From Kiritimatiellia bacterium (GTDB lineage: Bacteria; Verrucomicrobiota; Kiritimatiellia; RFP12; UBA1067), in assembly GCA_017542055.1 (NCBI GenBank), contig JAFXXW010000009.1, forward strand, positions 2,204 through 66,203: 64,000 bases of DNA, given 5' to 3'. Of this stretch, positions 1,648 through 41,922 are shown one piece after another. The notes below the pieces were generated by a model. That model was given only the letters and a program-made list of their open reading frames with translations. It made no database searches and had not been told where the DNA came from. The translations under genes were made by a program, and so were the position numbers. Each line of letters opens with the position of its first letter. The first letter of the stretch is position 1.

Positions 1648-3032
1648 GGCAAGTCTCCGTTCAAATCGATTTTCACCGCGCGCACGTCGCCCCAGCCGCA
1701 AGGCAAGGTAAAGGTGACGGTGCTGCCCGCGCGCTTCTTGTCGCCGCGCATGATGTCCCGCAGGCTCTCGAGACTCATTCCCGCCGGGAGTTCCACCGGG
1801 AGACCCGCCTGCGCAAACCGGGCGGCGAATTCTTCCGGCCAACCGGTCGGCGCCAGGCCCAGCCGCACCGCCATGCGCGCTTCGGCCACGCAACCGATGG
1901 CCACCGCCTCGCCGTGCGAGAGTCGGTAACCCGACGCCTTCTCCACCGCGTGACCGATGGTGTGGCCGCAATTGAGCAGCATGCGCCGGCCCAGTTTCTC
2001 GAACGGATCCTCGCGCACGATTTCCACCTTGACGGAAAGATTGCCGGCGATTTCGGTGGCGTCCGGCACCGCGCGCGCGAATTCCTTTTTTCCGCCGATG
2101 GCCCAGTGCTTGATCATTTCCGCGAGGCCGCACTTCATCACTTCCGGCGGCAGCGTGGAGAGGAAGTCGGTATCGATGACGACGAGCTTGGGGCTATGGA
2201 ACGCGCCCGCGAGATTCTTGCCCTCGGGGAGGTCGCACCCCGTCTTGCCGCCGGTGGAGGCGTCCACCATCGAAAGGAGCGTGGTGGGCACGTTGATCCA
2301 GTCGATCCCGCGCATCCAGGTGGCGGCCGCAAATCCGGTCATGTCGCCCGTGACGCCGCCGCCCACCGCCACCACGCGGTCGCGTCGGCCAAGCCCCGCC
2401 TGCGCAAAAGCGCTCCACATTTTGAGAATCGTGGCGGGCGTCTTGTGCTCCTCGCCCGAAGGCATCGTAAAGACGGTGCCGTGGGCGAGCTCGGGATGGA
2501 GCTTCAAGACATTCTCGTCCGTCACCAGTTTTTCGCCGCCCACGATCGTCTGCGCAAGACCCTCCCCCGCCAGCACCAGCGAATCGTCCAACAGGAAGAA
2601 GCGCGAGAGCCGGATGGGGAACGAGGCGTAATGCGGCGCGCGCTCCTTGGCCTTGTTGCCCAAGGGACGCACCACTTCGCCCGCGAGAATGCGCGCTTCC
2701 AGTTCCGCCTCGTCCGGCGCGTCGATGCAGATGACGGCGCCCGACTTTTCCGCAAGCTCCCGGTTGGCCGACCTAAGGAGCGTCCCGCCCCCCAGTGCCA
2801 CCACGCAAGGCTCTTCGATGGCGCACGCTTCCGCCAGCGCCCGCGATTCCGCGTCACGGAAACATTCCTCGCCGCGCGTGGCGAAGATTTCGGAAATGTT
2901 GCAGCCCTCGGCCTGGCAGACGAGGAGGTCGGTGTCGACAAACTTGACGCCCAGCGCCCGGGCCAGCGCGCGCCCCACCGTGGTCTTGCCGCTCGCGGGC
3001 GGTCCGTAGAGGAACAGCCTATTCATGCTCAC
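1644..3032 (-). CDS. aroKB: Bifunctional shikimate kinase / 3-dehydroquinate synthase fusion
   Basis: The N-terminus LFLYGPPASGKTTVGRALARALGVKFVDTD carries the P-loop of shikimate kinase. The C-terminal two thirds carry DHQ synthase motifs (GGGVTGDMTGFAAATWMRGIDWINVPTTLLSMVDASTGGKTG, HTIGHAVE). Start is GTG at 3032 or ATG at 3026. Confidence 0.85.
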   Translation of the reverse strand: MSMNRLFLYGPPASGKTTVGRALARALGVKFVDTDLLVCQAEGCNISEIFATRGEECFRDAESRALAEACAIEEPCVVALGGGTLLRSANRELAEKSGAVICIDAPDEAELEARILAGEVVRPLGNKAKERAPHYASFPIRLSRFFLLDDSLVLAGEGLAQTIVGGEKLVTDENVLKLHPELAHGTVFTMPSGEEHKTPATILKMWSAFAQAGLGRRDRVVAVGGGVTGDMTGFAAATWMRGIDWINVPTTLLSMVDASTGGKTGCDLPEGKNLAGAFHSPKLVVIDTDFLSTLPPEVMKCGLAEMIKHWAIGGKKEFARAVPDATEIAGNLSVKVEIVREDPFEKLGRRMLLNCGHTIGHAVEKASGYRLSHGEAVAIGCVAEARMAVRLGLAPTGWPEEFAARFAQAGLPVELPAGMSLESLRDIMRGDKKRAGSTVTFTLPCGWGDVRAVKIDLNGDLP

Positions 3033-5433
3033 GATATATCCTCCGCTGATGGATGGCCTGGTCGATCAACATCCGCCAACCGTTTTCCGCCTGGCCGCCC
3101 GCGTCGAGGCAGCGCTGCATGGCGGTGGTGACGGCCGGATGATAGACGAGATCGAAGAGTTTTTCCCGTCCCGTGAAAACGTAGCCTTTGAGCGCGTCGT
3201 CGGTGGAGTTGAGTCCCACCGAAGTGGTCTGGACGATCACATCCACCGGGGAGAGGCCCTCCAGCTCGCCCACCCGGAACCAATACTTGGCGGCTAAAAG
3301 TTCCGCCTTTTCCAGCGTGCGGTTGCAGATGATGGCGTCGCCCTTAAGCCCATGGACGGCGTAGGCCACGGCCTTGGCCGCGCCACCCGCGCCCACGATG
3401 AGTACGCGCTTGCCCGTCAGATCTTCCGTACCCAAAAACGCGCACAGGGCCGAGGCGAAACCGGGCGCATCCGTGTTGTAGCCCTTCCAGCCGGTCGGCA
3501 CTCGAACGAGCGTGTTGACGGCGCCGATCGTCTGGGCGGCCTCGTCCAGCTCCACCGCCAAATCGCGCGCGGCCTCCTTGTGGGGCACGGTTACGGCCGA
3601 GCCTTGGATGCCGACCGTATCGGCAAAGCGGACGAACTCGTCCAAGGTCTGGGCCGGGAACGGCACCAGCACCTTGTCCTCCTGCTCGTGGGCGAAAGCG
3701 AGATTGTTGAGCTCGGGCGAGCCGGTCACTTCCAGCGGCCATCCGGTGACGGCGTAGAGCCGGGTGGATGGGGTAAGCTGGCGGAAGCGATACGTGCGCA
3801 CGAGTTCGAACGGCGTCAGCTGGCCCAACTTGGCGGTGGCCGCGTCCGGCACACTGGCAAAGGTGAGCAGGCTCCCCAGGCGAAGCGCAAGAATGCGCGT
3901 CACCTTGCCGAGATGCCCCATGGCGCAGACGATGTACGGGAAGGCCCGGAAAGTCTGCAGCTGGCGGAAAGCGTCGGTGACGTCGTCGGGGCAAAGCGGC
4001 TGGAAGGCGATCTTGGGGATTTCGTCCGTGTCGCCTTTAAGGAGCGTCAAAGTTTCGCACAAGTTCCGGACGGGGCCGGAAAAATCGTGGAGCGAGCGGA
4101 TGATCCGGGCGCCATGACGTCGGGCCGCCGCTTCCACTTCCGCGCGACGGAAGTCGGTTTCCAAATCCACGTACTGGAAGCCCGCGCCTTGGGTAAGGAG
4201 CTCCACAAGAATCCGGGCCCGACCCTCGTCGTCGCCGTCGGGCCACTTACCGCCATCGCGTTCGCGCCGCAGCGTGAGGATGACGGGGAGGCCGGCCCGG
4301 GCCGGAAAGTCGCCCGCCGCTGCGATTTCCTGCCGGTCGGCGAGCAAGTCGAGCCTGAGTTCGCAGAGGTCGATATGGTCGCGATTCTCCCTAACCTGTT
4401 TAAGATTCTCCTCCAGCGTCTTGCCGGTCAAGGTAAGACAGATGCGCGGCGTCCGCGCTTCTTCGGCGAGGATCACGTCGGCCATGACGAGCGAGGTCAA
4501 AGCCTCCACCACCGGCACGGCCCGGAGCGCGATGCAAGGATCGTGCCGACCCTTGATCTGGAGCTTCGTCTCCTCCCGGGTCGTGAGGTCCACCGAGTCC
4601 TGCTCCTGATAGATGCTGGGCGTGGGACGCATCGTCACCTTGAACACCACTTCCGCGCCGTTGGTCATGCCGCCGGTAAGTCCGCCCGAATGGTTGGTGC
4701 GGGGCGTCACCTGGCCGTTCTCGTCCAGTTTAAGCGCGTCGTTGAATTCGCTCCCTTTCATGTCGGCGGCCTTATCGCCATCGCCAAACGACAGCGCCTT
4801 GACGCCGGGAATGCCGAAGATGGCGGCACTGAGCTCGCTCTCGATGCCATCGAACATCGCCCAGCCGAGGCCCTTGGGCATGCCCTTCACCCGGCAAACA
4901 ATGGTGCCGCCGATGGAGTCGCCCGACTGCTTCACGGCCAAAATCTCTTCCGGCGTCCGTTGCGCCACGGCCTCCACCGTGATCCCGCGCGCGGCGAGAT
5001 ACTGCTTGCATACGCCGCCTGCGATGCACATGGGCGCGGTGAGTCGACCGGAATGGCAGCCGCCACCCGCGGGGATGAGGCCCGTCTTGACCCACACGGG
5101 ATAGTCGCTATGGCCGGGCCGCGGCACGCTCCGCACGGAAGCGTAATCTTGGCTGCGGCAGTCGCGGTTGACGATGCGCGCATCGAGCGTTTCGCCGGTG
5201 GTGACGCCATTCTGGTCAAGTCCCTGCAGGAATTCGGGCGTGTCCGGCTCCTTGCGGGCGGTGCTGGTGGCATCGCGACCGGGCGCACGCCGCTCCAAAA
5301 AAACCTGAAGCGCGGCAAGGTCCACCTGGAATCCCGCCGGGAAGCCATCGAGGCGCATGCCGGTTTCGCGCGCATGGGAAGCGCCGCGAATCGCCAGTTT
5401 AAGCTGCTGGCCGATGAAGCTCGAACCCGTCAT
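3019..5433 (-). CDS. aroCDE: Trifunctional chorismate synthase / type I 3-dehydroquinate dehydratase / shikimate dehydrogenase fusion
   Basis: Residues ~1-350 look like chorismate synthase (GRHDPCIALRAVPVVEA, HSGRLTAP). The middle looks like type I DHQase (ICLTLTGKT...ELRLDLL...IIRSLHDF). The C-terminus looks like shikimate dehydrogenase (GSAVTVPHKEAA, GYNTDAPGF, LIVGAGGAAKAVAYA). ATG at 5433 forms an ATGA overlap with the tyrA stop. Confidence 0.8.
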   Translation of the reverse strand: MTGSSFIGQQLKLAIRGASHARETGMRLDGFPAGFQVDLAALQVFLERRAPGRDATSTARKEPDTPEFLQGLDQNGVTTGETLDARIVNRDCRSQDYASVRSVPRPGHSDYPVWVKTGLIPAGGGCHSGRLTAPMCIAGGVCKQYLAARGITVEAVAQRTPEEILAVKQSGDSIGGTIVCRVKGMPKGLGWAMFDGIESELSAAIFGIPGVKALSFGDGDKAADMKGSEFNDALKLDENGQVTPRTNHSGGLTGGMTNGAEVVFKVTMRPTPSIYQEQDSVDLTTREETKLQIKGRHDPCIALRAVPVVEALTSLVMADVILAEEARTPRICLTLTGKTLEENLKQVRENRDHIDLCELRLDLLADRQEIAAAGDFPARAGLPVILTLRRERDGGKWPDGDDEGRARILVELLTQGAGFQYVDLETDFRRAEVEAAARRHGARIIRSLHDFSGPVRNLCETLTLLKGDTDEIPKIAFQPLCPDDVTDAFRQLQTFRAFPYIVCAMGHLGKVTRILALRLGSLLTFASVPDAATAKLGQLTPFELVRTYRFRQLTPSTRLYAVTGWPLEVTGSPELNNLAFAHEQEDKVLVPFPAQTLDEFVRFADTVGIQGSAVTVPHKEAARDLAVELDEAAQTIGAVNTLVRVPTGWKGYNTDAPGFASALCAFLGTEDLTGKRVLIVGAGGAAKAVAYAVHGLKGDAIICNRTLEKAELLAAKYWFRVGELEGLSPVDVIVQTTSVGLNSTDDALKGYVFTGREKLFDLVYHPAVTTAMQRCLDAGGQAENGWRMLIDQAIHQRRIYREHE

Positions 5434-6209
5434 GATTGAAGCCCCCTTTTGGCGTCCGCACCCGACTTGATCCAAGCCATGAGGCCCGCCTTGTCACCTT
5501 GCGACAGGAGTTGCCGGAACTCGTCGATCCGGCCGGCGAAGCGCTCGACGACGGCAAGAAGATGGTCGCGGTTTTCAAGGAAAAGATCGCTCCACGTGTC
5601 CGCGTCCATCGTGGCCACGCGAGACATGTCGGCAAACGACCCCGCCGTGTAGCCAGGCGTCTCGGAAGCGAGCGGATCTTGGATGTAGGCGCCGGAGATG
5701 ACGTGGCAAAGCTGCGAGGTATAGGCGATCATCCGGTCGTGCTGGTCGGGCGTGGCGGAGACGATGGTCGTGAAGCCGAGCGCCTGCAAGACCGGGCAAA
5801 GCTTGTCCAGGGGACCCCGCCCCATGAAAGGATAGGGCGTCAAGATGATTGACGCGCCCCGGAAAAGATCTTCGTCGGCGTTGGCGAAGCCGGCAACTTC
5901 CTTGCCGGCCATCGGGTGCGCGGGGATGAACGTCCAGTTTGCTTTAAGCGCCTTCTCGCGGAACGACTCGAATACCGGCCGCTTGACGCCGCACACGTCG
6001 GTGAGGATGGCGCCCGGCTTGAAGCCGGCCTCGTGCGCCTCGATCCACGGCGCGATCGACTTGGGCGGGAGCGCCACGAAAATGATATCGACGTCCGAGA
6101 GATCGGCCGGATCGGCATGATGGAGCCCTAGCGTTTCGTAGCCGGCCTTGCGGGCCGCCTTCAACAGCGAGCCGCCGATCAGTCCCATTCCCACCACTGC
6201 GAGTTTCAT
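5430..6209 (-). CDS. tyrA: Prephenate dehydrogenase
   Basis: MKLAVVGMGLIGGSLLKAARKAGY Rossmann N-terminus, plus PAHPMAGKEVAGF and a TyrA-like C-terminal half. Sits inside the aromatic amino-acid operon. Confidence 0.8.
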   Translation of the reverse strand: MKLAVVGMGLIGGSLLKAARKAGYETLGLHHADPADLSDVDIIFVALPPKSIAPWIEAHEAGFKPGAILTDVCGVKRPVFESFREKALKANWTFIPAHPMAGKEVAGFANADEDLFRGASIILTPYPFMGRGPLDKLCPVLQALGFTTIVSATPDQHDRMIAYTSQLCHVISGAYIQDPLASETPGYTAGSFADMSRVATMDADTWSDLFLENRDHLLAVVERFAGRIDEFRQLLSQGDKAGLMAWIKSGADAKRGLQS

Positions 6210-11746: not shown

Positions 11747-11775
11747 ATTATACCATATTCCGCCCGAAAAATCAA
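11747..11775 (-). promoter_or_regulatory. Sigma70-type promoter of the pheA-leu-tyrA-aro operon
   Basis: Minus strand reads cgcTTGATTtttcgggcggaatatggTATAATaa, with -35 TTGATT (11775-11770), a 17 nt spacer, TGn-extended -10 TATAAT (11752-11747) and a T-tract upstream of the -35. Confidence 0.7.
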
Positions 11776-11808: not shown

Positions 11809-12837
11809 TTACTTGGCGGAATGGGAGACGACGGTGCAACCGGTGGAAGTGACCTGTACGAGGTCTTCGATGCGCACGCCGAGCTTGCCCTCGAGATAGA
11901 TGCCGGGCTCGATGGTTACGAACATGCCGGGCAGGAGTTTCATCTTGCTCTTGCTGCTGGCGTTGGGCGCTTCGTGCACCTGGTAGCCCACGCCGTGGCC
12001 GAGGCTGTGCCCGAACGCCTTGCCGTAGCCGGCTTTCGCGATGTGGTCGCGCGCGATCTTGTCCAGCGCCTTGCCGGTCATGCCGGGCCTCAGTCCAGCA
12101 ATCGCCTTTTCGTTGGCTTCAAGCACGATCTTGTATATCTTGCGGTAGAGTCCGCGCACCGTCTTGGGCACGATATTGCGCGTCATGTCGGCGCAGACGC
12201 CGTCCAGCTTGACGCCCATATCCACCAGCACCGGCTCCTTGCCGTTCCACACCGTATCGTCCGGCACATGATGGCACTCGGCCGCGTGCTTGCCCACGCA
12301 GACTATGGTGGCGAACGCCTCGCCGTCGCCATGCTCCACCATGAGCACCTGGATTACCCGCGCCATTTCGCGCTCGGTCATGCCGGGACGGATCCGCTCC
12401 TGGGCGAGACTCCAGATCTTGTCGTTCAGCGCCTCCACCGCGCGCAGCTTTTCGATCTCCTCCGGCGTCTTGACGGCGCGCAGCTCCTTGATCTTGGGCT
12501 CCACGTCCACGAACTCCACCCCGGGATGCGCCTTCTGCAGGGCGAGGAAGCGCGCATGGCTCATGGACGGCTCGTAGCCCGCCCGCTTGCCCGGGAAGAC
12601 CACCTTCTTGATGTCCTTCACCTTCAACTCCGGCGCCACGCGATGCACCATCGGCACGTAGCGGAAGTCGGTGTAGAAGATCGGCGGCGCGTCCGGCAGC
12701 ACCACGAGACAGGCGTTGTCGCATTCGATGCCGGTGAGCGCGCGGACGTTGAATTCGTCGTAGACGAGCGCCGCCGAGAGTTGCTCCTCCTGGAGGTAGC
12801 GGGCGAATTGTTCGAGTCGATGCAGTTTGGGATTCAT
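11809..12837 (-). CDS. M24-family Xaa-Pro aminopeptidase/dipeptidase
   Basis: 342 aa with VLVDMGVKLDGVCADMTRN, FGHSLGHGVGYQVHE and VTIEPGIY...GVRIEDLV, the metal ligands of the M24B pita-bread fold. The RBS AGGAG lies inside the end of the preceding gene. Confidence 0.8.
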   Translation of the reverse strand: MNPKLHRLEQFARYLQEEQLSAALVYDEFNVRALTGIECDNACLVVLPDAPPIFYTDFRYVPMVHRVAPELKVKDIKKVVFPGKRAGYEPSMSHARFLALQKAHPGVEFVDVEPKIKELRAVKTPEEIEKLRAVEALNDKIWSLAQERIRPGMTEREMARVIQVLMVEHGDGEAFATIVCVGKHAAECHHVPDDTVWNGKEPVLVDMGVKLDGVCADMTRNIVPKTVRGLYRKIYKIVLEANEKAIAGLRPGMTGKALDKIARDHIAKAGYGKAFGHSLGHGVGYQVHEAPNASSKSKMKLLPGMFVTIEPGIYLEGKLGVRIEDLVQVTSTGCTVVSHSAK

Positions 12838-12842: not shown

Positions 12843-13019
12843 CTACTCCTGGATTTCCAATTTGAAAATAAGCGGATGGTTGGCGCGATAGGCGTTGAGC
12901 GCGGCGAGACGCGGGGCGATGCCCTCGACGAAGATGCAGAGGACCGTCACCACCATCGCCACGCAGAGCATGCCGAGGGCGAGTTCCGTCAAGGCTTGGC
13001 CTTTGCGGTTAGTGACCAT
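12843..13019 (-). CDS. Small TadE-like pseudopilin (58 aa)
   Basis: Internal ATG of ORF 12843..13175: MVTNRKGQALTELALGMLCVAMVVTVLCIF. It has the TadE-type RKGQALxE N-terminal motif plus one hydrophobic helix. Overlaps the upstream gene end by 11 nt. Confidence 0.5.
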   Translation of the reverse strand: MVTNRKGQALTELALGMLCVAMVVTVLCIFVEGIAPRLAALNAYRANHPLIFKLEIQE

Positions 13020-14280
13020 GCGCCACGCCGCTCCCCATCGGCCGGCCGCCGCCTCCGCGACGACACGTTTTCTTGTTCCATTTGAGCCACCAGACGCCGT
13101 GTTTGCGGAACGCGGCGCGGTCCCACGTCTTGAGCAGTTTGCACCACTCGCACTTGTCGGCGTGGAGGCGGCCATGGTCGAGATACTCCGGCACGTGCAA
13201 TCGCACGTGGACGAGCCAGTCGTAATCGTCCATCGTGTTGCAGCAACCCGACACGGTCCCTAGCGGCACCAGCCGCGCGAACCGGAAGACGGGAAGCACG
13301 AAGCCCTTGGGGTCCAGCACGCCGAACGGCCGGGCCACCGACATCCAGCCGCAAGTGGAGCACGCGGACGCGCAGCCTTGGAAGTCGTACTCGGGCTTGG
13401 GCGCGCCGACCGCCGGAAAGCCGTTCTTGATGAGACTCCATTCGCCCATGAAGCCGCCGCTGAAGAAAAACCAGTACTGGTTGGGGTCGCTCGCCATATC
13501 CTCGTTGTAGCCGGGATCGATGCGGGCAAGCTCCTCCTTGGTGTAGACGTCGGTCAGCGCGCACTGGCGCACCTGGAGCCGGAGCGAGAAAAATTCGCAA
13601 TTGAGCGTGTCGACAACGTCCTTGAGATCCAGCTCCGGCCAGTCGTGGAAGTCGCGGTAGTTCTGGAGATAGTCGTAGGCGTTGAAATAGAACCAGCACC
13701 AGTCCCGGGCGGCTACGGCGTCGTAAAAAGCGTGCTCGGTCAGGATGTGGTCGCCGAAATGGCAGAACGACAAGTTGGCGCAGCCCATGTACCGGGCGGC
13801 GCCGGCGGCCTCGTAGAGCTTGTCCACGTATTCGCCCCAGGCGCCGGGGTAGGACGGCTCGTAGGGGAAGCCCTGCTCGTACACTTCCACCACCTGGCGC
13901 GCATGGTCCATCAAAATGCGCCAGGCGGCGTTGTTGTCGTCCAATTCCTTGGGCGCGAGCCCCATCTCCCCCGCCACCGCCTGGCCCGCGATATAGGCGT
14001 CGAGGGGGCCCAAGAGGCAAAGCTGGCGCTGCCGGAGGACGATTTCGTCCACCTTGGCGCCGAGCAAAGGATGCAGCTCCAGGTGCTCGAGGTTGAGCCG
14101 GCCGATTTCGTTGATGAGTTCTCCTTGGTACTGCGCCACCTTGACCGAGGCGGCGTCGATGGCGTTCTGCTTGAGCATTTTCCCGGCGAAGAAGGTGTAG
14201 AAGCGATAACTGGCCAGGGAGAGGAGCACGATCCCCACCAGCGCCATCGCCAGAAAAACCGCCACCTGTCCGCGTTTCAT
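13009..14280 (-). CDS. TadG-like (Tad_N type) membrane-anchored protein with Trp/Tyr/Cys-rich C-terminal domain of unknown function
   Basis: ATG at 14280 (ATGA overlap with the upstream stop): MKRGQVAVFLAMALVGIVLLSL...KQNAIDAASVKVAQ resembles the TadE/G-like N-terminus. The remainder (DWCWFYFNAYDYLQNY, GCASACSTCGW, GCCNTMDDYDW, DKCEWCKLLK) matches nothing I recognise. Confidence 0.5.
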   Translation of the reverse strand: MKRGQVAVFLAMALVGIVLLSLASYRFYTFFAGKMLKQNAIDAASVKVAQYQGELINEIGRLNLEHLELHPLLGAKVDEIVLRQRQLCLLGPLDAYIAGQAVAGEMGLAPKELDDNNAAWRILMDHARQVVEVYEQGFPYEPSYPGAWGEYVDKLYEAAGAARYMGCANLSFCHFGDHILTEHAFYDAVAARDWCWFYFNAYDYLQNYRDFHDWPELDLKDVVDTLNCEFFSLRLQVRQCALTDVYTKEELARIDPGYNEDMASDPNQYWFFFSGGFMGEWSLIKNGFPAVGAPKPEYDFQGCASACSTCGWMSVARPFGVLDPKGFVLPVFRFARLVPLGTVSGCCNTMDDYDWLVHVRLHVPEYLDHGRLHADKCEWCKLLKTWDRAAFRKHGVWWLKWNKKTCRRGGGGRPMGSGVAHGH

Positions 14281-14819
14281 GGCGCCGCCAGATAGTCCCG
14301 GTAATGGTTTTCGATATGCGATACGCCCGTCAGCGACACCGGGATGTCGAGAATGGCAAAGTCCATCCGCACGGAGGAGTCGTCGCCGGGCTTGACGTAA
14401 AGCGTGCGCCAATATTCGTACTCCATGAAGCCGGCCGCTTCGGACGGGGTTTCACGCCCCATGTAGAGCCGGGCCAGCTGCACCACCGTAGCCGCGCGGA
14501 GGCGGAGTTCTTCCGAGAGTTCCTCGTCGAGGAGCTCTTCGTCTTCGGCCGCGAGCTCGGGCAGGTTGGCCTCCAGTTCTTCGGCGTCGGGCCACAGCCG
14601 CGCGCCTGCCACGGTCATCACGGCCACCCGGGCCACTTTGTTGCAGACGAAATCGTTGAGCCCCACGGTGCGCGCCCGGGCCACCCGGGAGGCGGAATAC
14701 TCCAGCATGATCTTGACCGTGAGCAACCGCGCCAGGAAAAAGAGCGCGAAAAACAAGAAGGCGACGAAGAGTACGGCCACGACCGACTCCACCATCGCCT
14801 GTCCGCGCCTGAGACGCAC
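14277..14819 (-). CDS. TadE-like pseudopilin
   Basis: GTG start. (M)RLRRGQAMVESVVAVLFVAFLFFALFFL is a TadE-type N-terminus. An acidic stretch follows (AEDEELLDEELSEE). Confidence 0.55.
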   Translation of the reverse strand: MRLRRGQAMVESVVAVLFVAFLFFALFFLARLLTVKIMLEYSASRVARARTVGLNDFVCNKVARVAVMTVAGARLWPDAEELEANLPELAAEDEELLDEELSEELRLRAATVVQLARLYMGRETPSEAAGFMEYEYWRTLYVKPGDDSSVRMDFAILDIPVSLTGVSHIENHYRDYLAAP

Positions 14820-14820
14820 T

Positions 14821-15042
14821 TCAGTCCTCGCCCAGATTGCGGATGGAATCGGTGCCGACTTCCTCCACGGCCGCCTTGGCCTTTTCGCCCTCTTCGGCCG
14901 ACAACATGCTGGCGGCGCCGGCAGTCTTCTTGCCGATGGCGCGGGCGAGATAGCTGAACACCGCTATGAGCGACACCGCGATCAGGCACACGATGATGAT
15001 GTATTCCACCATCGTCTGGGCCTTGCGCATTTTCTTCATCAT
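14821..15042 (-). CDS. Flp/Fap-family pilin (73 aa)
   Basis: MMKKMRKAQTMVEYIIIVCLIAVSLIAVF carries the Flp motif (G/A)xxxxEY followed by a hydrophobic helix. Position -1 is Ala instead of Gly. RBS AAGGAAA lies upstream. Confidence 0.6.
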   Translation of the reverse strand: MMKKMRKAQTMVEYIIIVCLIAVSLIAVFSYLARAIGKKTAGAASMLSAEEGEKAKAAVEEVGTDSIRNLGED

Positions 15043-15057
15043 GGTTGTTTTCCTTTC

Positions 15058-15201
15058 TTAAGGCACGCCCGCCGAGAGCAGCGCCACCGTTTCGGTTTCG
15101 TGACGGTAGACGGCGCGGAAAAAATACGCGAAGACGACCGACAGCATCAGCATGCCCGCCAGCACCAACACGTATTCCACCATCGTCTGTCCCGTGCGCA
15201 T
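15058..15201 (-). CDS. Flp/Fap-family pilin (47 aa), not in ORF track
   Basis: My translation reads MRTGQTMVEYVLVLAGMLMLSVVFAYFFRAVYRHETETVALLSAGVP*. It has the G|QTMVEY Flp motif after a 4-residue leader and shares the QTMVEY core with the 73 aa paralogue. Confidence 0.55.
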   Translation of the reverse strand: MRTGQTMVEYVLVLAGMLMLSVVFAYFFRAVYRHETETVALLSAGVP

Positions 15202-15216
15202 GGATGGGTTTTCCGG

Positions 15217-16647
15217 TTACTTGAACATCTGCATGGAGATCGCGCCGGCCACGGCGCTGACCACCGACGAAATCGCGTTGAGCTCGTCGGCCGATACGCG
15301 CAGCACGAAGGCGTAGTCGTCCGCGTCGCGCCAGGCGGCTCCGGCCACGGCGCCGTTCTGGTTGTCGGCGAAAGCCATCATGACGGCGCGGATGGTGGGC
15401 TTCACGTCGTCCGGCGCGGCGGCCAGCACGTCCGGCGCCACCGCCCGGATGATGCCGTAGGGCGAGGAGACGGCGGCCGCGTTGAGCGAGCGGCCCTGCA
15501 CCTCCGGCAGAATTCTGGCCAGCTTGGCCGAAGGCGAAACCGGCGCCGGGCGGTTCTTGACGGAAAACGCCATGCCCCAGGGACGGTATTCGTGGCCGGG
15601 CTGGATCTGGTCCGCCTTGGCGGCGATGGCGTCGATCTCCGCCTGGAAAGTCTTATCGTCGAAGGTAGGCTGCTCCGCCTCGTCCTGGAGGTAGCCGATC
15701 AGCGACACAGTGTCGAGCTCCAGCAGGAGATTGTCGCCCTGCCTTTCGCGCTTGAGCCACGAAAGATCCAGCCGGTTGCGTTCGGCGCTGGCCAGCATTT
15801 CCCGGACGAGCTCGCCCGCCCGGTCGAACGCGGGGCCGTCCACCATCGTCACGCTCGCCGACTGGGCGCCGGCCGGGGCGAAAGCAAGCACGTCGCCCGT
15901 CAACGGCGAAACGCTCATGCGGTCGAATTCGCTGCCGGGCCGGACGCGGATGGCGCCATGCAGATCCACCCCGAGATCGTTGACCAGGAGTGCCAGCTTG
16001 ATGCCGTCCATGTCTTTGATATACTCGAGCGCGTCGTCCATGTCTTCGTCGAAGTTTTCGTCGCAGAAGCGCTGGGCGGCCGCCTCCATCCGGCGCATGC
16101 AGGCACGGGTCAACTCGAGCTGGACGAGATCGCCCGCCATCTCAGACCGGGCCGCGGGAAATTCCCCGGCCGCCAATTGAGCAATTTCGCGGCTTTCGGC
16201 CACCGCCACCCACTGCCCGTCCTCCGAAAAAATCGCATACTTGGGCTTGCCGTTTTCGGCCTCGATATACTTGACGATGCCGTCGCGCTCGCGCGACTTG
16301 AACTGCTTGGCGCAGAATTGCGCTTTGTTCAGCGTGGTCGGCAGCACCAAGGCCGCCTCCAAGTCGTCATCGTTGATTTCGGCGTCCGCTTTGGCGGTGT
16401 CGAGATAGGCCAAGAGCAGAATGGGGGCGTCGATCCGGCATTCGCCCAGCTCCTGTTCCACGGCTTCGCTCATGACCGCGATGCCCACCACCACGCCCAA
16501 GGGGTAATTGACGAATTCGCCCACCTTGGTGGCGGCTTGCACGAGCTGCGCGCGTCCTGTCGCCTTGATCGAACCCATCTTTTCCGGTACCGCGAAGGTC
16601 GCGGACGCCAGGCACAACGCCGCCAGCAGCGGCGCAAACTTTTTCAT
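15217..16647 (-). CDS. Secreted protein of unknown function (476 aa)
   Basis: Signal peptide MKKFAPLLAALCLASATFA. AAGGAG RBS lies 7 nt upstream of the ATG. First gene after the promoter at 16678-16706. I recognise no domain. Confidence 0.6.
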   Translation of the reverse strand: MKKFAPLLAALCLASATFAVPEKMGSIKATGRAQLVQAATKVGEFVNYPLGVVVGIAVMSEAVEQELGECRIDAPILLLAYLDTAKADAEINDDDLEAALVLPTTLNKAQFCAKQFKSRERDGIVKYIEAENGKPKYAIFSEDGQWVAVAESREIAQLAAGEFPAARSEMAGDLVQLELTRACMRRMEAAAQRFCDENFDEDMDDALEYIKDMDGIKLALLVNDLGVDLHGAIRVRPGSEFDRMSVSPLTGDVLAFAPAGAQSASVTMVDGPAFDRAGELVREMLASAERNRLDLSWLKRERQGDNLLLELDTVSLIGYLQDEAEQPTFDDKTFQAEIDAIAAKADQIQPGHEYRPWGMAFSVKNRPAPVSPSAKLARILPEVQGRSLNAAAVSSPYGIIRAVAPDVLAAAPDDVKPTIRAVMMAFADNQNGAVAGAAWRDADDYAFVLRVSADELNAISSVVSAVAGAISMQMFK

Positions 16648-16677
16648 ACGAGACTCCTTTTGTGCGATTTAGCGTCT

Positions 16678-16706
16678 ATTATATCATATTTCCGGAGATT
16701 TTTCAA
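16678..16706 (-). promoter_or_regulatory. Sigma70-type promoter of the Flp/Tad-like operon
   Basis: Minus strand reads ccgTTGAAAaatctccggaaatatgaTATAATaga, with -35 TTGAAA, a 17 nt spacer and TGA-extended TATAAT. A ~30 nt leader carries AAGGAG. Confidence 0.7.
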
Positions 16707-16727: not shown

Positions 16728-19700
16728 TCAGTCGTCCGCCAGCAAGATGGCCGGGATGAAGCAAAACGCGAGCGCGTGATCGTTCAGATAGCGCACGGTG
16801 ACTTCGATGTCGCGGCCTTTGAAATTGTGGAAAGCGTCCAGCCAGCCGCCATAGAGGCGCATCGACAGTTTGCAGGTCTCGGCGTTGTAGGCCACCACCC
16901 GCATATCCTTGGGCGAATAGCGGATGCCCACGCCGAGCGCCTTGGAAACGGCCTCCTTGGCGCACCAGAAGCGGATGATGGTCTGGGCGGGATTGAGCGC
17001 GTGCGCGGCGAGGTCGAGCTCTACGGGATTGAAGACGCCGGCGGTGAAGTCTTCGGAGAGATTGCGGGTGGCGTTTTCCACGTCCACGCCGATCTTGACG
17101 TTGGCGCCCGCGAGGGCGATTACGAACTGGGCGGTGTGGGCGATGGCGATGTCCAGCTTGGCGGAGAGGAAGTCCAGCCACTCGCCGATGGCGTAGGGCT
17201 TGCCCATGTCGTTGGTGCAGATGGTCACGTCCGCGTAGCTCCACCGCGCCTGGTAGTAGTCCTTGAGGAAGCGCCGCACGGCCTCCTTGGCGGCGATGCG
17301 CCCGAAAAGCCACTCGGTGCGGCGCGCGGTGACCCCGGTTTTCTTGGCGAAGGTGCGGCGCTCGATGTCCGACAGGACGATATGCGAAAACGTCTTGAGC
17401 CACACTTCCTCGTCGCGCTCGAAAAGTTCGTAAGGGATGCCGGTGATGTAGGCCGCGCTGACGTCTGCCGGGGGCGCGCCGAGCGTCTCCTTGGACATGT
17501 CCTGCGAGATGAAGCTGGTGGCCGGCTGCATGACGAGCTGCTGGTAGCCGGGCGGAATGCGCTGCGAATACTCTTCCCAGCCGTCGATCGTCATGAGCGC
17601 GGTGCCGTTGCCGTCGGACACGACGATGTCGCACAGCTGGCTCTTGGGGGTGACGCCCGTCAGGCGCAGATAGCAGCGGAGATTCTGGTCTTCCTTGGGG
17701 GGCGCGTTATGGAATTCGATCTTCCGCACCTTGAAGGGAAACGACCAGGCGCCCGCGAAACGTTCGTGCGACCGCCACAACCGGAAGCCGTTGGTGATCG
17801 TCTCCAAAAGAAGCGGATTGACCTGCCACAGGGGGAACAGCGTGTGGCCCACGCAACCGGCCAGTTTGGGCACCGTAAGTTCGTAATCGAGTCCCGTTTC
17901 CGACCACGCCCCCACGAATTTGATGGCGCGTAGCCGCGCGCCGCAGCTCAGCCGCCCGGGATAGATGTCGCGACCGGCCCAGTGGACCGAGCGCGGTTTC
18001 AGGAGCTGCTCCGGCATGGCGGGGACGGGATCGCCGAACTGCTTGGCGAACGTGAACACGCCATCCATCACCGGCCAGGTGTAGCCGGCCTTGCCGTCGC
18101 CCGTGAACACCATGGCCTTGACCGCCATCAGATTGGCGTCGCCCGAGGCCACGCGTTCGGCCTTGAGAAAGAGCTCCAGTTCGCCGCCCTTGAATTCCAC
18201 CGTCTTGCGCGACTGCAGATCCTCGATGGATACCAGCTCGCGGTTGGGGGCGATGTAGGTGCAGAGCTCGGCCATGATTTCGGCCGCGACCGGCATGGTG
18301 AGCAAAACGAGTCCGCGCAGATTGGGGTCGGAATACGACAGCTGGCTCGTGCCCAGTGCCGAATCGGCGATGAACGGCAGTTCCGACAGCTTGAAGTTCT
18401 TGCGCATTTCGATGGACACGCCGGGCACGTGCTCGAGCGTGTCGGCGTCGGAAATGAGCGGATTCATGGCGCCGGCCTCGAACTGGCGCTGCCGGCGCGC
18501 CCGCGCTTCCATGGCGGCGGCGCGGGCGGCCACCTTGGCGATGCGGCCCTTGGGCTCGGCCAGCGGCGAGATGGAAGGCAGGAGCCCTTCCGGCGAGGCC
18601 AACGTCAGACGCGGAAAGCGACGCGAAAGCTTGAGTTCGCGCTCCTGGCGGACCTCCAGGGAAAAGGCGGAATCGAAATCGAGTTTGCGGGCGTGGCGGC
18701 GTTCGAGATACTTGCCGATGTCCACCTTGGCGCCCAACGCCGCCAATTGCGCCAACGCGTGCTGGAGCTGGAGGAGTCCGCGCCGATGGATGGAGTTGGT
18801 GGCGATGGCGGCGTGCTCGCGACCCTTGAGCGTGTCCTCCACCGCGGCCGTAATCATGCCGCGCGGTCCCACCTCCAGAAACACGCGGTAGCCGTCCGCG
18901 TACATGGTTTCGATCGTTTCGCGGAAGCGGATGGGCTTGATCCAGCGCGTCACGGTGTCTTCGCGCTGCGGCCGGATGCCCTTGGCCACCAGCGCGGCGG
19001 TGGCGCAGGAGTAGACGGGCGCGTAAGGCTCGAAACGCATCCACTTCTGGGCGAAGCGCCGGAACTCCGGCAGCAGTTTTTCGCAAGCCGGGGTGTTGAA
19101 GGGACGGTTGAGCGCCAGCTTGGAGGTTTTGACTCCATGTTCGGCCAGGATGCCCGCGATCAGTTCTTCGGCGGACTTTTCGGCCGCGTACACCTTTTGC
19201 CGGGGCGAGAGATCGTTGACCAGCCGGAAAGCGCCCGGCGGAATGCGGGCCAAGGCGGCCTCGAGATCGGCCTCGTCCTTGACGATGAGCGAAAGCATGG
19301 CGGCTTCGGGGAGGCCGGCGTGGTCCACCGCCTTGTCCACCAGCCGGTAGAGATCGCGGATGATTCCGATGCGATCCTGTCGGCCGGGATTGCGACCGAT
19401 CGAGCCGGACTCGATGAGCGAGGCCACGTCGCCCCCGGCGAATCCCACCACGCCTTCGGACTCGAGCCCGAAAAAGTTGAGGATGCGCTTTACCGCCACG
19501 CAGCCGGAATAGGTGGCCACCAGCGCCTGCGCGTACGCCCCGGAGGAAAAGATGTCGGCGTCGTGCCGGTAGTACGGGGCGGGCGGAAAGATGAAGCTCG
19601 AGGGCACGAAGTTGCCGGCGTCGCCCTTGAGCGCCTCTTCCAGCTCGTCGAAAGCCGAACGGCACTCGGGGTAGAGGTAGGCCAGATCGCGCATCATGTC

Positions 19701-20039
19701 GGGGTAGAAACTCATCACGCCCGGAAACACGAAAGCCAGCTTGCCGGCGCCCGCGCCCAGGAGCGGCTCGGAGAAATAGTAGGTGCCGCTCTTGTCCCGG
19801 ATGCGCTTTACTCCCGCGCCCTCCAACCGGCTTTTGGCGGAAGCGAGCCGCTGGCGGAGATCGGCCACGGAGTCGGTCACGATGGCCAGCGTCTGCGGTC
19901 CCCGGGAGAAGCCGCAGGTATAGGCCACGTCGCACAAGTTGGAATCGGGCGCGCGATCGAGAAAACCGACGATCCGGGCAACCTGCGCCAGCAGCGTTTC
20001 GCGGTCGGGCGCGCGGACGATGACCAGCTCGGTGCTCAC
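16728..20039 (-). CDS. PKS-like multidomain protein: post-KS linker, AT-like, PS-DH-like double hotdog and Sfp-type 4'-phosphopantetheinyl transferase
   Basis: 1103 aa, GTG start, GTGA overlap with the KS-like stop. The AT-like region has KLAFVFPGV...GVVGFAGGDVASL. The DH-like region has LPFIADSALG...LLTMPVAAEIMAE. The C-terminal PPTase has KIGVDVENAT and FWCAKEAVSKALG. Confidence 0.65.
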   Translation of the reverse strand: MSTELVIVRAPDRETLLAQVARIVGFLDRAPDSNLCDVAYTCGFSRGPQTLAIVTDSVADLRQRLASAKSRLEGAGVKRIRDKSGTYYFSEPLLGAGAGKLAFVFPGVMSFYPDMMRDLAYLYPECRSAFDELEEALKGDAGNFVPSSFIFPPAPYYRHDADIFSSGAYAQALVATYSGCVAVKRILNFFGLESEGVVGFAGGDVASLIESGSIGRNPGRQDRIGIIRDLYRLVDKAVDHAGLPEAAMLSLIVKDEADLEAALARIPPGAFRLVNDLSPRQKVYAAEKSAEELIAGILAEHGVKTSKLALNRPFNTPACEKLLPEFRRFAQKWMRFEPYAPVYSCATAALVAKGIRPQREDTVTRWIKPIRFRETIETMYADGYRVFLEVGPRGMITAAVEDTLKGREHAAIATNSIHRRGLLQLQHALAQLAALGAKVDIGKYLERRHARKLDFDSAFSLEVRQERELKLSRRFPRLTLASPEGLLPSISPLAEPKGRIAKVAARAAAMEARARRQRQFEAGAMNPLISDADTLEHVPGVSIEMRKNFKLSELPFIADSALGTSQLSYSDPNLRGLVLLTMPVAAEIMAELCTYIAPNRELVSIEDLQSRKTVEFKGGELELFLKAERVASGDANLMAVKAMVFTGDGKAGYTWPVMDGVFTFAKQFGDPVPAMPEQLLKPRSVHWAGRDIYPGRLSCGARLRAIKFVGAWSETGLDYELTVPKLAGCVGHTLFPLWQVNPLLLETITNGFRLWRSHERFAGAWSFPFKVRKIEFHNAPPKEDQNLRCYLRLTGVTPKSQLCDIVVSDGNGTALMTIDGWEEYSQRIPPGYQQLVMQPATSFISQDMSKETLGAPPADVSAAYITGIPYELFERDEEVWLKTFSHIVLSDIERRTFAKKTGVTARRTEWLFGRIAAKEAVRRFLKDYYQARWSYADVTICTNDMGKPYAIGEWLDFLSAKLDIAIAHTAQFVIALAGANVKIGVDVENATRNLSEDFTAGVFNPVELDLAAHALNPAQTIIRFWCAKEAVSKALGVGIRYSPKDMRVVAYNAETCKLSMRLYGGWLDAFHNFKGRDIEVTVRYLNDHALAFCFIPAILLADD

Positions 20040-21439
20040 GTGCGCACCTCCGGTTCCTCCTCCAGGATCAATACGGAGCTGCGGCCGCCGCGCGTATCGA
20101 TGCCGTCAGAGGTGACGGGATCGAAATTGGCGCCCAGCACGGCGGCGCGACGCGGATTGGCGGCGTCGCCTTTGATCCAGGGCCGGGGCTCGCTCAGCAG
20201 ATAGGCGCTGGAGGCGAGATTGGAAAGCTTGAGCGACGGATGCGGCACCGCCACCTGGGGCGCCAGCACCTTGTGGTGCAGGGCGAGCGCCGCCTTGACC
20301 GTGCCGGCCGCCATCGAGGCCCTGAGCGTATGGCCGATGTTGCCCTTGACGGAGCCTACGCCCACCAGCGGACCGCCGGGGACGTGTTCGCCCCACAAAC
20401 TCTGGATGACGGCGATTTCGCGATCTTCGGCGCGCTTGATGCCCGAGCCGTCGGCCTCGATCAGCTCGATGGACTTGACGGGAATCCCGGCCTCCTTCAC
20501 CGCCAGCTTGAAGAGGCACGCCGGATCGTCCTCCGGATTGTGGCCGATCGTGACCGACTTGATGAGCGCGTAGATGCGGTCGTGGTCTTTGAGCGCGTCC
20601 TCGCGCCGCTTGAGGACGAAAAACGCCCCGCCCTCGCCCGGCACCGTGCCCTTCTGGTTTTCGGCGAACGGCGCAAACTCGGGCGCGTCGGAAAAATCCA
20701 CCTCGCCCGAAACGCCTTCCAGATAGGCGCGCGACAACGGCGGCGTGATGGCGCCCGCGAGCGCCACTTCGCAATGGCCCGTCAGAAGATCGTTCACCGC
20801 GCCCCGGATGGCGGCCGCGCCCGTGAGCATGCCCGCGTCCAGAATGGTGGCGCCGCCCGCAAACGAGGTTTCGCGCGCGATCCAGGAGACGAAGCGATAG
20901 CCCGAACCCATGAGGAAACTGGCGGCGTTGGGGGCGGGGAGCGAATCCGACAGCCGCGCGGCGATCATGTCCATCTGCTCTTCGGGCGCATGCGGGAAGA
21001 ACCGGCGGATGATGTCGAGCGTCTGGTCGAGAAAGGCGGTGTGCTGCAGCCAGTTGACGGTGGAGGCGTTGAACGGCGGCGCGTACCCCAGCCGCACCGA
21101 GCCCGCGCGCATGTGGCGGCTGCGCGGACGCATGGAGGCGTCGGCGAGGGCGTCGAAGGCGAGCTGGGTGGCGAAGTACAGATCCTGGTTTTCGCCCGCG
21201 TTGATCTGGCGGGGAAAGGTCTGCATGGAAGGAACGCACGCGAAGAGATCGCCCAATTGGCCCATCCGCACCGGATACGGCCGCTTGAACACGTTCTGCT
21301 GGCCGATGGGCAGTTCCACGTCCGCGCCCGGCAAGGTCAGCATCGAGCGCTGGTTCATGATGGCGTCCCAATACGCCTCCAGCGAAGGACAACCGGCAAA
21401 ACGGCAACTCATGCCCACTATAGCTATCGAGTTATCCAT
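20036..21439 (-). CDS. Beta-ketoacyl synthase-like protein lacking the active-site Cys
   Basis: 467 aa. IAIVGMSCRFAGCPSLEAYWDAI is a type-I KS N-terminus. ILDAGMLTGAAAIRGAVNDLLTGHCEVALAGAI sits where DTACSSS is expected. EADGSGI sits where EAHGTG is expected. GNIGHTLRASMAAG is retained. Confidence 0.65.
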   Translation of the reverse strand: MDNSIAIVGMSCRFAGCPSLEAYWDAIMNQRSMLTLPGADVELPIGQQNVFKRPYPVRMGQLGDLFACVPSMQTFPRQINAGENQDLYFATQLAFDALADASMRPRSRHMRAGSVRLGYAPPFNASTVNWLQHTAFLDQTLDIIRRFFPHAPEEQMDMIAARLSDSLPAPNAASFLMGSGYRFVSWIARETSFAGGATILDAGMLTGAAAIRGAVNDLLTGHCEVALAGAITPPLSRAYLEGVSGEVDFSDAPEFAPFAENQKGTVPGEGGAFFVLKRREDALKDHDRIYALIKSVTIGHNPEDDPACLFKLAVKEAGIPVKSIELIEADGSGIKRAEDREIAVIQSLWGEHVPGGPLVGVGSVKGNIGHTLRASMAAGTVKAALALHHKVLAPQVAVPHPSLKLSNLASSAYLLSEPRPWIKGDAANPRRAAVLGANFDPVTSDGIDTRGGRSSVLILEEEPEVRT

Positions 21440-21463
21440 TTGCCGGTCGGGTCGCGGGGAAGT

Positions 21464-21556
21464 TGGCGGAGGGAGGGGGATTCGAACCCCCGGTACGGGT
21501 TTACCCCGTACGACGATTTAGCAAACCGCTGCCTTCAGCCACTCAGCCATCCCTCC
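21464..21556 (-). tRNA. tRNA-Ser (anticodon GCT), CCA encoded
   Basis: The reverse complement folds as a cloverleaf. Acceptor GGAGGGA/TCCCTCC, anticodon loop TTGCTAA, long variable arm GTACGGG-GTAA-CCCGTAC, T-arm GGGGG-TTCGAAT-CCCCC, discriminator G plus CCA. Confidence 0.85.
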
Positions 21557-33629: not shown

Positions 33630-33657
33630 TGGTAGGCTCCTTGGAAGAACGGAAGTT

Positions 33658-35325: not shown

Positions 35326-35335
35326 GTATGAGAAT

Positions 35336-35364
35336 ATTATACAATATTCCCGACAAAAAAGCAA
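35336..35364 (-). promoter_or_regulatory. Sigma70-type promoter of the pilB-pilT-pilB-polA unit (near-leaderless)
   Basis: Minus strand reads cgcTTGCTTttttgtcgggaatattgTATAATattctcatacATG, with -35 TTGCTT, a 17 nt spacer and TATAAT. There are 10 nt between the -10 and the ATG at 35325. Confidence 0.6.
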
Positions 35365-35382
35365 GCGAAAAATGAAAGTAAA

Positions 35383-39328: not shown

Positions 39329-39882
39329 ACCCGGCCCTTCTCCATGGCGTTCTGGCACTCCATGCAGGTGGTGGCGAACGGCTGGTTCAAAAGCCGCGGC
39401 TTGCGGATCAGCTGGCCGCACGCCGTGCAGATGCCGTAGGTGCCGTCGTCGATGCGATGCAGCGCCTCTTCGATCTTCTGGATGATCGAATTGATGTTGC
39501 CCATCTGCCCGAGCGCCTGCAGCCGCAGCGTCTGGTTGGTGCCGTCGCCGCCGTCGGACTCGCGGTCGCCGCTTTCGTTGAAGCCGGTGGCCTTCATGGC
39601 CTCCACCCCGCTCATGGCCTCTTCGCGCGCCGCGAGGAGCAGCTTGCGGAACTCCTTGAGGTCGGCCGCCGGAAACTTGGTGGTGGCCTTGCCCTTTTCC
39701 GTGCGCGACTCCGGACGCTTGCTCAGCTTGATGCCGTTGTCGTCCTCTTCGCGGTTGTCGATGGCCACCGCCTCCGCCTTCTTCTCGGCGGCGATGCCCA
39801 TCACGAACTTGCGCGCCTCTTCGGGCGTCATCTGGCGTCCCGCCGGACGTTTCGGCGGCTGGGGTTTCACGGGTTTGTTCAT
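39325..39882 (-). CDS. DksA/TraR-family C4 zinc-finger protein with Lys/Glu-rich N-terminal extension
   Basis: Last 185 codons of ORF 39325..41610. ...IEEALHRIDDGTYGICTACGQLIRKPRLLNQPFATTCMECQ is the CxxC-N17-CxxC finger. ATG at 39882 forms an ATGA overlap with the greA-like stop. Confidence 0.7.
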   Translation of the reverse strand: MNKPVKPQPPKRPAGRQMTPEEARKFVMGIAAEKKAEAVAIDNREEDDNGIKLSKRPESRTEKGKATTKFPAADLKEFRKLLLAAREEAMSGVEAMKATGFNESGDRESDGGDGTNQTLRLQALGQMGNINSIIQKIEEALHRIDDGTYGICTACGQLIRKPRLLNQPFATTCMECQNAMEKGRV

Positions 39883-41888: not shown

Positions 41889-41922
41889 GCTAAAACTCCG
41901 TTTCAAAATTTCGTTGTCCCAT

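Follow-up and report, generated by a model that had tools for sequence, protein, structure and literature searches.

Can a set of pilin genes be of use to a bacterium when no gene for pilus assembly lies beside it? This question is raised by an operon in a 64,000-nucleotide stretch of contig JAFXXW010000009.1 from a Kiritimatiellia bacterium (GenBank assembly GCA_017542055.1, positions 2,204 to 66,203), which as a whole is called the window here. On its minus strand, between positions 12843 and 16706, five pilin-type genes follow the gene for a putative secreted protein of 476 amino acids (aa), and a gene for an M24-family peptidase comes next. A preliminary description, made from the window alone, regarded this as an orphan Flp/Tad-like pilin operon and left two alternatives: either the structural genes are uncoupled from a Tad machine encoded elsewhere, or they are serviced by a different apparatus. 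The first alternative is favoured by the comparative evidence presented here, and nothing direct was found for the second. We consider it likely that the operon provides the subunits of a type IVc (Tad/Flp) pilus system whose machinery is encoded elsewhere, and that this is the split locus typical of the lineage.

Identity of the pilin-type genes

The five pilin-type genes were assigned to families from their orthologues and from synteny, because the window proteins themselves fall under the Pfam gathering scores. Species-representative genomes (one genome per bacterial or archaeal species) were scanned with an alignment of the TadG-like family, which gave 385 relatives, and the best 80 loci were analysed. 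When the reference proteins were mapped onto these loci, the order flpA-flpB-tadE-tadG-mini was found in essentially every locus. In the window, flpA (15058-15201) encodes a 47 aa protein beginning with MRTG↓QTMVEY (the arrow marks the predicted cleavage site), which its motif and orthologues suggest to be a short Flp-like prepilin, and flpB (14821-15042) encodes a canonical Flp prepilin of 73 aa (MMKKMRKA↓QTMVEY) whose C-terminal tail is acidic. Next come the genes for a TadE-like minor pilin of 180 aa (14277-14819, with a GTG start; MRLRRG↓QAMVES), a TadG-like large minor pilin of 423 aa (13009-14280; KRGQVAV) and a mini pilin of 58 aa (12843-13019; MVTNRKG↓QALTE). The motif QTMVEY occurs in both Flp proteins, and its counterparts are RRGQAMVE in the TadE-like protein and RKGQALTE in the mini protein.

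The residues around the predicted cleavage site are strongly conserved among the orthologues. FlpA orthologues have G at position -1 in 78 of 80 cases, and both E at +5 and Y at +6 in 74 of 74; FlpB orthologues have G (71) or A (10) at -1 and carry E(+5) and Y(+6) in 81 of 81. The TadE-like orthologues have G, A or S at -1 with E(+5) in 72 of 72, and the mini orthologues, taken from 79 loci, have G or A at -1 with E(+5) in 78 of 78. The residue at +1 is Q in all five pilin-type proteins. The TadG-like orthologues have G(-1) in 79 of 81 and E(+5) in none, the +5 residue being aromatic or aliphatic; absence of E(+5) is usual for TadG. The preliminary description had counted five class-III-signal-like proteins, which holds for four of them, while the TadG-like protein of the window has F, not E, at +5.

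The same description had proposed a check against the profiles PF04964 (Flp_Fap), PF07811 (TadE) and PF13400 (Tad), and the outcome was divided between the window proteins, which are under the cut-offs or unmatched, and their orthologues, which do match. For the 47, 423 and 58 aa window proteins nothing was found above cut-off in Pfam or NCBIfam; the one match of the mini protein, to NF007660, scores 16.6 bits against a cut-off of 86, and PF13400 gave no match at E<=1 on the TadG-like protein. About 290 orthologues were then scanned sequence by sequence. Flp_Fap matches 73 of 73 FlpB members (the window FlpB and 72 orthologues) at E<=0.01, the best at 1.2e-10, and PF07811 matches 61 of 72 TadE-like members, the best at 2.4e-9, and just 3 mini members. 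The archaeal-type Pfam profile Class_IIIsignal matches 29 FlpA members, and in precomputed annotations PF13400 is found on about half of the TadG orthologues at 29-37% identity. The TadG-like protein has 47 homologue clusters, which, where named, are proteins of Kiritimatiellae or Lentisphaerae metagenome-assembled genomes (MAGs).

Two of the five genes need a further comment. First, in public gene calls the TadE-like gene begins at an internal Met (172 aa), so that the MRLRRG↓QAMVE signal is lost; we place the start at the GTG at 14819 because RRGQAMVE is conserved across orthologues, which means that annotation pipelines begin this gene 8 codons too late. Second, the mini protein measures 53 aa from G(-1) here, about 97 aa in most loci of the gut clade and 162-183 aa in the complete loci of environmental relatives described below. 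It occupies the slot of the 162-183 aa class-III-signal protein of the complete loci and is weakly similar to the N-terminus of that protein; by position and this weak similarity it may be called TadF-like.

Judged by sequence, the five genes are a Tad-type pilin set with two Flp proteins, a TadE-like, a TadG-like and a truncated, putatively TadF-like protein, and the preliminary reading of the operon as Flp/Tad-type pilins with minor pilins is borne out by conserved motifs and orthologue profile matches. A chance origin of the motifs is excluded, as gene order and motifs repeat in about 80 independent loci. An identity as type IVa pilins or type II secretion system (T2SS) pseudopilins was also rejected: the N-methyl motif G↓F(T/S)LxE is absent, and PF07963 was found in 4 of the 146 members scanned.

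The TadG-like protein and the putative tip set

The TadG-like protein consists of an N-terminal hydrophobic helix and a head domain of about 350 aa rich in Trp, Tyr, Cys and His. Many TadG proteins carry a vWA-type domain. The head of the window protein was called unrecognisable in the preliminary description and has remained so: it has no Pfam match, a profile search found no PDB sequence match, and comparison of an AlphaFold2 model with the PDB by Foldseek gave no match below E=1. The model, built on a 35-sequence alignment, has a predicted local distance difference test score (pLDDT) of 84.5 and a predicted template modelling score (pTM) of 0.82, and in it an N-terminal helix of 67 residues leads into a globular head of mixed, predominantly helical structure. 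The family comprises 190 representative clusters at E<=1e-30, with full-length matches in a single length range that start at the N-terminus. Its alignment contains 31 invariant positions; W194-C195-W196-F197, N227, E229, C380, C406 and the final H423, which ends a Gly-rich C-terminal tail, are invariant, and C377 (forming CxxC with C380) as well as H358 and H362 (HxxxH) are nearly so. This conservation of Cys and His suggests disulfides or a metal site.

A comparison can be made with the Kil system of Myxococcus xanthus, for which heterotrimeric tips made of KilLMN, homologues of TadE/F/G, have been predicted; its large tip subunit has a head domain without PDB homologue, and three extra tip sets are encoded in separate clusters (PMC12075869). 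As in the window, three TadE/F/G-like minor pilins are encoded together there, one small and one large, the large subunit's C-terminal domain is without PDB homologue, the heads are Cys-rich, and the clusters lie away from the main machinery (PMC12075869). The differences are that the Myxococcus tip clusters are extra paralogous sets beside a machinery-linked set and have no major pilin (PMC12075869), whereas the single set of the window travels with both Flp genes, and that the head domains share no sequence similarity. In content and size pattern, the TadE-like, TadG-like and mini proteins fit a KilLMN-like tip set, and by this analogy they may be located at the pilus tip.

Complete loci and M24-type loci among the relatives

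The relatives of the operon show what the block was once connected to. Seven loci, all from environmental Kiritimatiellae (L004, L081, L088, L090, L098, L099 and L114), are complete: the block is followed by genes for the 162-183 aa class-III-signal protein, a protein of about 240-290 aa, RcpC, a CpaF with an N-terminal FHA domain, TadB and TadC, and, where the contig continues, for an FHA protein and a PEGA protein past tadC. Because the block joins rcpC-cpaF-tadB-tadC in these relatives, where it belongs to a genuine Tad locus, the window block is an orthologue of the part of a working Tad system that encodes the subunits. One complete locus adjoins a gene of the CbiA/ParA family, which contains TadZ/CpaE. 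Neither a tadV/A24 peptidase gene nor a secretin gene was found in the stretches read around the complete loci, and the A24 prepilin peptidase is probably unlinked in this class generally.

Almost all of the remaining loci come from gut, rumen or faecal MAGs, and in these the M24 peptidase gene takes the place of the motor genes after the block. The orphan state is thus not peculiar to the window genome and is common to the whole gut/rumen clade to which the window belongs, which makes an orphan operon in the window less surprising. In a distance-based, midpoint-rooted neighbour-joining tree of the TadG-like protein, the complete loci fall on one side of the root and all M24-type loci on the other; 15 loci with other downstream genes and 2 secretin-linked loci are nested inside the M24-type clade. 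The tree points to a single ancient break followed by secondary losses, although, being distance-based and midpoint-rooted, it is suggestive and not conclusive. In the two secretin-linked loci (L008, 11861-17573, and L037), the block is followed by unknown proteins of 437 aa and 178 aa and not by M24, and then by a secretin of 953 aa, whose closest relative is GspD and not RcpA, and by a low-complexity protein of 324 aa rich in Ala, Lys and Glu; the 437 aa protein of L008 had no match when its sequence was searched against the PDB.

Compared with the well-known Tad/Flp loci of Aggregatibacter actinomycetemcomitans (flp-tad-rcp) and Caulobacter crescentus (cpa), the block shares short Flp prepilins with a basic leader, G/A(-1), E(+5) and Y(+6), two tandem flp genes, TadE/TadF pseudopilins with E(+5), and a large TadG without E(+5) and with a hydrophobic N-terminus, and in the sister lineage it is contiguous with rcpC, cpaF/tadA, tadB and tadC. 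Unlike those loci, the window keeps its subunit genes apart from peptidase, ATPase, platform and secretin genes, its TadG head is without Pfam or PDB relatives, and its operon ends in an M24 gene. Even the complete Kiritimatiellae loci differ from them in the missing tadV and secretin genes and in the fusion of FHA to CpaF.

Assembly machinery in the window, its flanks and related genomes

As the preliminary description had stated, the window contains no assembly machinery: among the genes of the 64 kb, none for an A24 prepilin peptidase, a secretin, RcpC, CpaE, CpaF/TadA or a T2SSF-family protein (TadB/TadC) was found, and where an A24 peptidase was sought among the window open reading frames (ORFs), LspA (A8) alone came up. 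The only pilus-type ATPases are of the PilB/PilT type, also in agreement with that description. These are three T2SSE ATPases on the minus strand (30813-35382), namely a GspE/PilB-like protein of 563 aa, a PilT-family protein of 399 aa and a GspE/PilB-like protein of 574 aa. The possibility that one of them is a misread CpaF was rejected, since the CpaF of L004, used as a control, matches the TadA family and the three window proteins do not. The trio is wedged between polA and trkH, with no platform, alignment or secretin genes nearby, and type IV filament genes seem to be generally dispersed in this genome. A precedent for a pilin operon far from its machinery is found in the type IVa minor-pilin operons (fimU-pilVWXY1E), which lie apart from pilBCD and pilMNOPQ; the window PilB/PilT genes also stand alone. 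Unlike the type IVa proteins, the window pilins lack the N-methyl-Phe motif and belong with a different peptidase and motor family.

A complete tad locus directly beyond the window edges, which would make this an ordinary split locus according to the preliminary description, was not found. The flanks were read from contigs of other assemblies of the same organism, and no tad genes were found in 8.4 kb on the left or about 3 kb on the right. Genes for EPSP synthase, radical SAM enzymes, a kinase and an SRA-domain protein were read in the left flank, which also contains the beginning of a gene for a 3208 aa protein; the right flank has genes for unknown proteins, to which a second assembly adds one for a DUF3987 protein.

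Pieces of the machinery were found in related genomes. For example, in the M24-type gut MAG L022 an intact tadC lies 4 kb downstream of the block, past a thioesterase gene and the gene for methionyl-tRNA synthetase (MetRS). The encoded protein is 48-52% identical to TadC of the complete loci, and tadC is followed by the same FHA and PEGA genes as in L088. Using the L022 TadC for a metagenome scan, ten loci were found at 72-79% identity, all with tadC-FHA(-PEGA). No cpaF or tadB was detected upstream of these ten trios, four of which have 7-10 kb of upstream sequence. As a conserved unit of three genes, tadC-FHA-PEGA is found on its own in gut-clade genomes (L022, 15902-19625; L101-L110), and in complete loci it sits at the 3' end of the tad operon. 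In a further locus, L112 from a related organism, FHA-cpaF and tadB are separated from tadC by two inserted genes, and no pilin genes lie upstream. Because of the tadC trios and the pilin-less L112 locus, we regard the tad genes of these lineages as being carried in separate pieces. A search with CpaF gave 120 near-equal Kiritimatiellae matches, and the three examined were all in complete-type loci; no cpaF was found within 10 kb of any M24-type locus.

These data bear on a different explanation, in which the gut clade has lost its Tad motor and a different type IV filament machine processes and assembles the Flp subunits, using GspE/PilB- and PilT-type ATPases such as those of the window with a GspD/PilQ-like secretin. 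It would account for the pilus-type ATPases of the window being limited to two GspE/PilB and one PilT, for the lack of cpaF near M24-type loci, for the tadC trios without detected cpaF or tadB, and for the order in L008 and L037, where the block, two unknown proteins, a GspD-like secretin and a further unknown protein follow each other. However, an intact tadC is kept in an M24-type genome and is well conserved among its relatives, which suggests that the Tad platform is still used, and the L112 locus shows a machine-only cpaF-tadB-tadC arrangement in a related organism. The secretin adjacency is confined to one narrow lineage, as L008 and L037 are nearly identical. In addition, a dedicated peptidase of the TadV type and a TadA/BC motor are generally required by Flp prepilins, as known from FppA and PilD in P. 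aeruginosa and from TadV in A. actinomycetemcomitans. We therefore consider such a hybrid unlikely.

Operon structure and the M24 peptidase

The ORFs named in the preliminary description all lie where it placed them, on the minus strand. The unit begins with the gene for the 476 aa protein, an acidic, Ala-rich protein with a signal-peptide-like N-terminal segment (15217-16647), and ends with the gene for a 342 aa M24B enzyme of the Xaa-Pro dipeptidase/aminopeptidase-P family (11809-12837). The junctions between the seven genes are, in order, 15, 15, 1, -4, -11 and 5 nucleotides (nt), and all seven ORFs show high third-position GC. The ATG of the mini gene overlaps the last codons of tadG, giving an 11 nt overlap with the tadG stop. 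The M24 ATG follows the TAG of the mini gene by 5 nt, with a GGAG in the final mini codons, as expected from the preliminary claim of a ribosome-binding site inside the mini gene.

A sigma-70-like promoter (TTGAAA-17-TATAAT with an extended -10 TG, 11/12 matches) heads the unit at 16678-16706, as had been claimed, and it is the sole such site on the minus strand until 11775. The next one (TTGATT-17-TATAAT, 11747-11775) lies between the M24 stop and pheA, whose start is near 11713 in the gene calls, and is the likely end of the unit. No convincing minus-strand terminator was found between the two promoter-like sites. One transcription unit of seven genes is the simplest reading, because the junctions are short, a single promoter-like site lies upstream and the next lies past M24.

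The 476 aa protein does not belong to the core of this unit. It has no Pfam domain, its homologues are limited to two clusters at 99% and 74% identity together with L010 (49%) and L013, and its AlphaFold2 model (three-sequence alignment; pLDDT 35) is unusable. In its sub-clade the gene always immediately precedes flpA, with a similar promoter-like site before it; for example, L010 has a 10/12 site equally placed before the homologue, with a different upstream neighbour. In most loci flpA lies a few tens of nt behind some unrelated co-directional gene, and in other lineages this slot is held by unrelated co-directional genes with equally short gaps. A role as core component was rejected, as the protein is confined to one sub-clade, and we treat it as a probable later, sub-clade-specific addition at the 5' end. 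The preliminary description was right in placing a secreted-type protein first in the operon, and the protein lies outside the conserved module.

The M24 gene was listed before as a mere next gene; the position is correct, and it has turned out to be the most conserved partner of the block. Its product matches Peptidase_M24 (PF00557) at 206.8 bits and Creatinase_N (PF01321) at 51.9 bits, its best PDB match is the proline dipeptidase 5giu (E 5.5e-58), and the motifs VDMG, ADMTR, GHGVG, IEPG and RIED, for the D, D, H, E, E metal ligands of the pita-bread domain, are present as read from the translation, not residue-aligned. By these sequence features it is a standard Xaa-Pro dipeptidase/aminopeptidase-P family enzyme with intact ligand motifs, and no signal peptide was found in it. 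Among the 71 assessable loci (those with enough downstream sequence), the M24 gene directly follows the mini pilin gene in 49, with gaps of -28 to +94 nt. The other neighbours are variable: of 86 loci, 16 share the commonest upstream gene and 4 the most frequent gene past M24. In the preferred reading the M24 gene would be a long-standing co-transcribed passenger. Pro is the final residue of all FlpA sequences inspected, in most of them within S-[DE]-Y-P, and the window FlpA ends in A-G-V-P; the pairing of an Xaa-Pro end with an Xaa-Pro peptidase gene may be coincidence, and the topology looks wrong for a cytoplasmic enzyme.

It has also to be considered that the M24 enzyme is a working part of the pilus pathway, for example by maturing or turning over pilin or the released leader. 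The frequent adjacency, often with overlapping or near-overlapping stop and start in otherwise variable surroundings, the lack of a separate promoter-like site before M24, and the Xaa-Pro ends of FlpA can be read in this way. However, the enzyme resembles a cytoplasmic prolidase without signal peptide and the FlpA C-terminus would face the periplasm; no Pro is found at position 2 of the leaders or mature N-termini; the complete Tad loci of the sister clade have no M24 nearby; about 15 loci have lost the adjacency secondarily without sharing a replacement; and a gene without its own promoter would remain linked even without shared function. A role of M24 in the pathway is accordingly improbable as well. 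The combination of both ideas is more doubtful still, and we give little credit to a gut/rumen clade that lacks the Tad ATPase and prepilin peptidase and makes Flp filaments through a GspE/PilB-PilT machine, a GspD-like secretin and maturation by M24; in that case the type IV filament system would be a chimera, and its processing enzyme non-canonical. Finally, the operon as a decaying remnant of a lost Tad system that no longer forms a filament, for which the lack of machinery in view and the shortening of the third minor pilin (about 97 aa in the gut clade and 58 aa here, down from about 180 aa) could be cited, is hardly credible in the face of five intact ORFs in the same order in about 80 species-level genomes, invariant cleavage-site residues and the 31 invariant positions of the TadG-like protein, junctions that keep translational coupling, and a strong promoter-like site.

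Proposed model

We therefore return to a split Tad/Flp system as the preferred explanation. The gene content, motifs, orthology and synteny of the block, its split pattern among relatives and the absence of machinery from the window and near flanks are the observations behind it. In this model, one promoter would drive the seven tightly coupled genes, and FlpB, and probably FlpA, would be made as prepilins with a short basic leader and inserted in the inner membrane. A TadV/CpaA-type prepilin peptidase would cut after G/A(-1), and a CpaF-TadB-TadC motor would polymerise the pilins. The TadE-like, TadG-like and truncated TadF-like minor pilins would prime assembly and come to sit at the tip of the pilus, where the TadG head, rich in Cys, His and Trp, would be exposed and would presumably serve for adhesion. 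Judging from the relatives, the peptidase, motor, RcpC and secretin would be encoded elsewhere in the genome.

The arrangement could have arisen from an ancestral 12-gene operon, flpA-flpB-tadE-tadG-tadF-x240-rcpC-cpaF-tadB-tadC-FHA-PEGA. This operon would have broken in the ancestor of the gut/rumen clade, with the pilin block landing directly upstream of a housekeeping-type M24 gene; the block and M24 would have been co-transcribed ever since, and the 476 aa gene would have been added later at the 5' end.

Several points weigh against this explanation. First, the profile scores of the window proteins are low: FlpB reaches 21.6 bits against Flp_Fap (cut-off 32.2) and the TadE-like protein 18.9 bits against TadE (cut-off 22.9). 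Second, the Tad machinery of the window genome was not seen in the 64 kb and the roughly 11 kb of visible flanks, a CpaF-type ATPase has been demonstrated in no M24-type genome, and identity matrices of TadC and CpaF do not place L112 in the M24-type clade with confidence. Third, the secretin after the module in L008 and L037 is GspD-like and not RcpA-like. Fourth, the promoter was scored on the sigma-70 consensus, which may not apply to this phylum, and the tight, long-lived coupling of M24 could mean a functional link, which is treated as neutral here.

Other features of the window and its surroundings

The flanking genes are of the housekeeping kind. Genes for aromatic amino acid and leucine biosynthesis lie on one side of the operon; on the other side are a ketosynthase and a large acyltransferase/dehydratase/phosphopantetheinyl-transferase protein, and transporters and polA are found farther out. 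The two genes directly upstream of the operon (16728-21517, minus strand) encode the ketosynthase of 467 aa and the large protein of 1103 aa, which has acyltransferase, dehydratase-like and C-terminal phosphopantetheinyl-transferase regions and resembles a polyketide synthase (PKS) or polyunsaturated fatty acid (PUFA) synthase. Fused shikimate-pathway enzymes are encoded at 1644-5493 (minus strand), namely an 804 aa fusion of chorismate synthase, dehydroquinase and shikimate dehydrogenase and a 460 aa fusion of shikimate kinase and dehydroquinate synthase. Two further unusual proteins are encoded on the minus strand: an 888 aa fusion of a Kelch/NanM-like (N-acetylneuraminate epimerase) domain to a sodium:solute symporter (24295-26967), and a 689 aa protein with GreA/GreB domains confined to the last 160 residues and a long unmatched N-terminal region (39879-41948).

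The GC fraction is 0.58-0.60 at 54000-64000 and 0.63-0.65 in the rest of the window, and the DUF3987 protein lies just past the right edge in one assembly (L094, 12174-13172); this end of the window may have been acquired. At 5-10 kb to the left of the window, the SRA-domain protein and the start of the 3208 aa protein, which has no Pfam match, were read from L095 (16234-21383).

Conclusion

In conclusion, the operon belongs to a known kind of system; no new mechanism is needed, and the view of how Tad pili work is unchanged. No description of Kiritimatiellae pili was found in a full-text search of a library of papers. The analysis defines a conserved subunit operon, with two Flp proteins and a putative tip set of three proteins, in at least 80 species-level genomes, and finds the ancestral 12-gene tad operon in pieces across the gut clade. 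Annotation pipelines that expect a contiguous locus will miss this system. Kiritimatiellae are abundant and almost uncultured members of animal gut and rumen communities. The TadG-like head, with its confident model, its conserved Cys, His and Trp residues and no solved relative, is a candidate adhesin, and it offers a way to study how these bacteria may attach to mucus, fibre or host cells.

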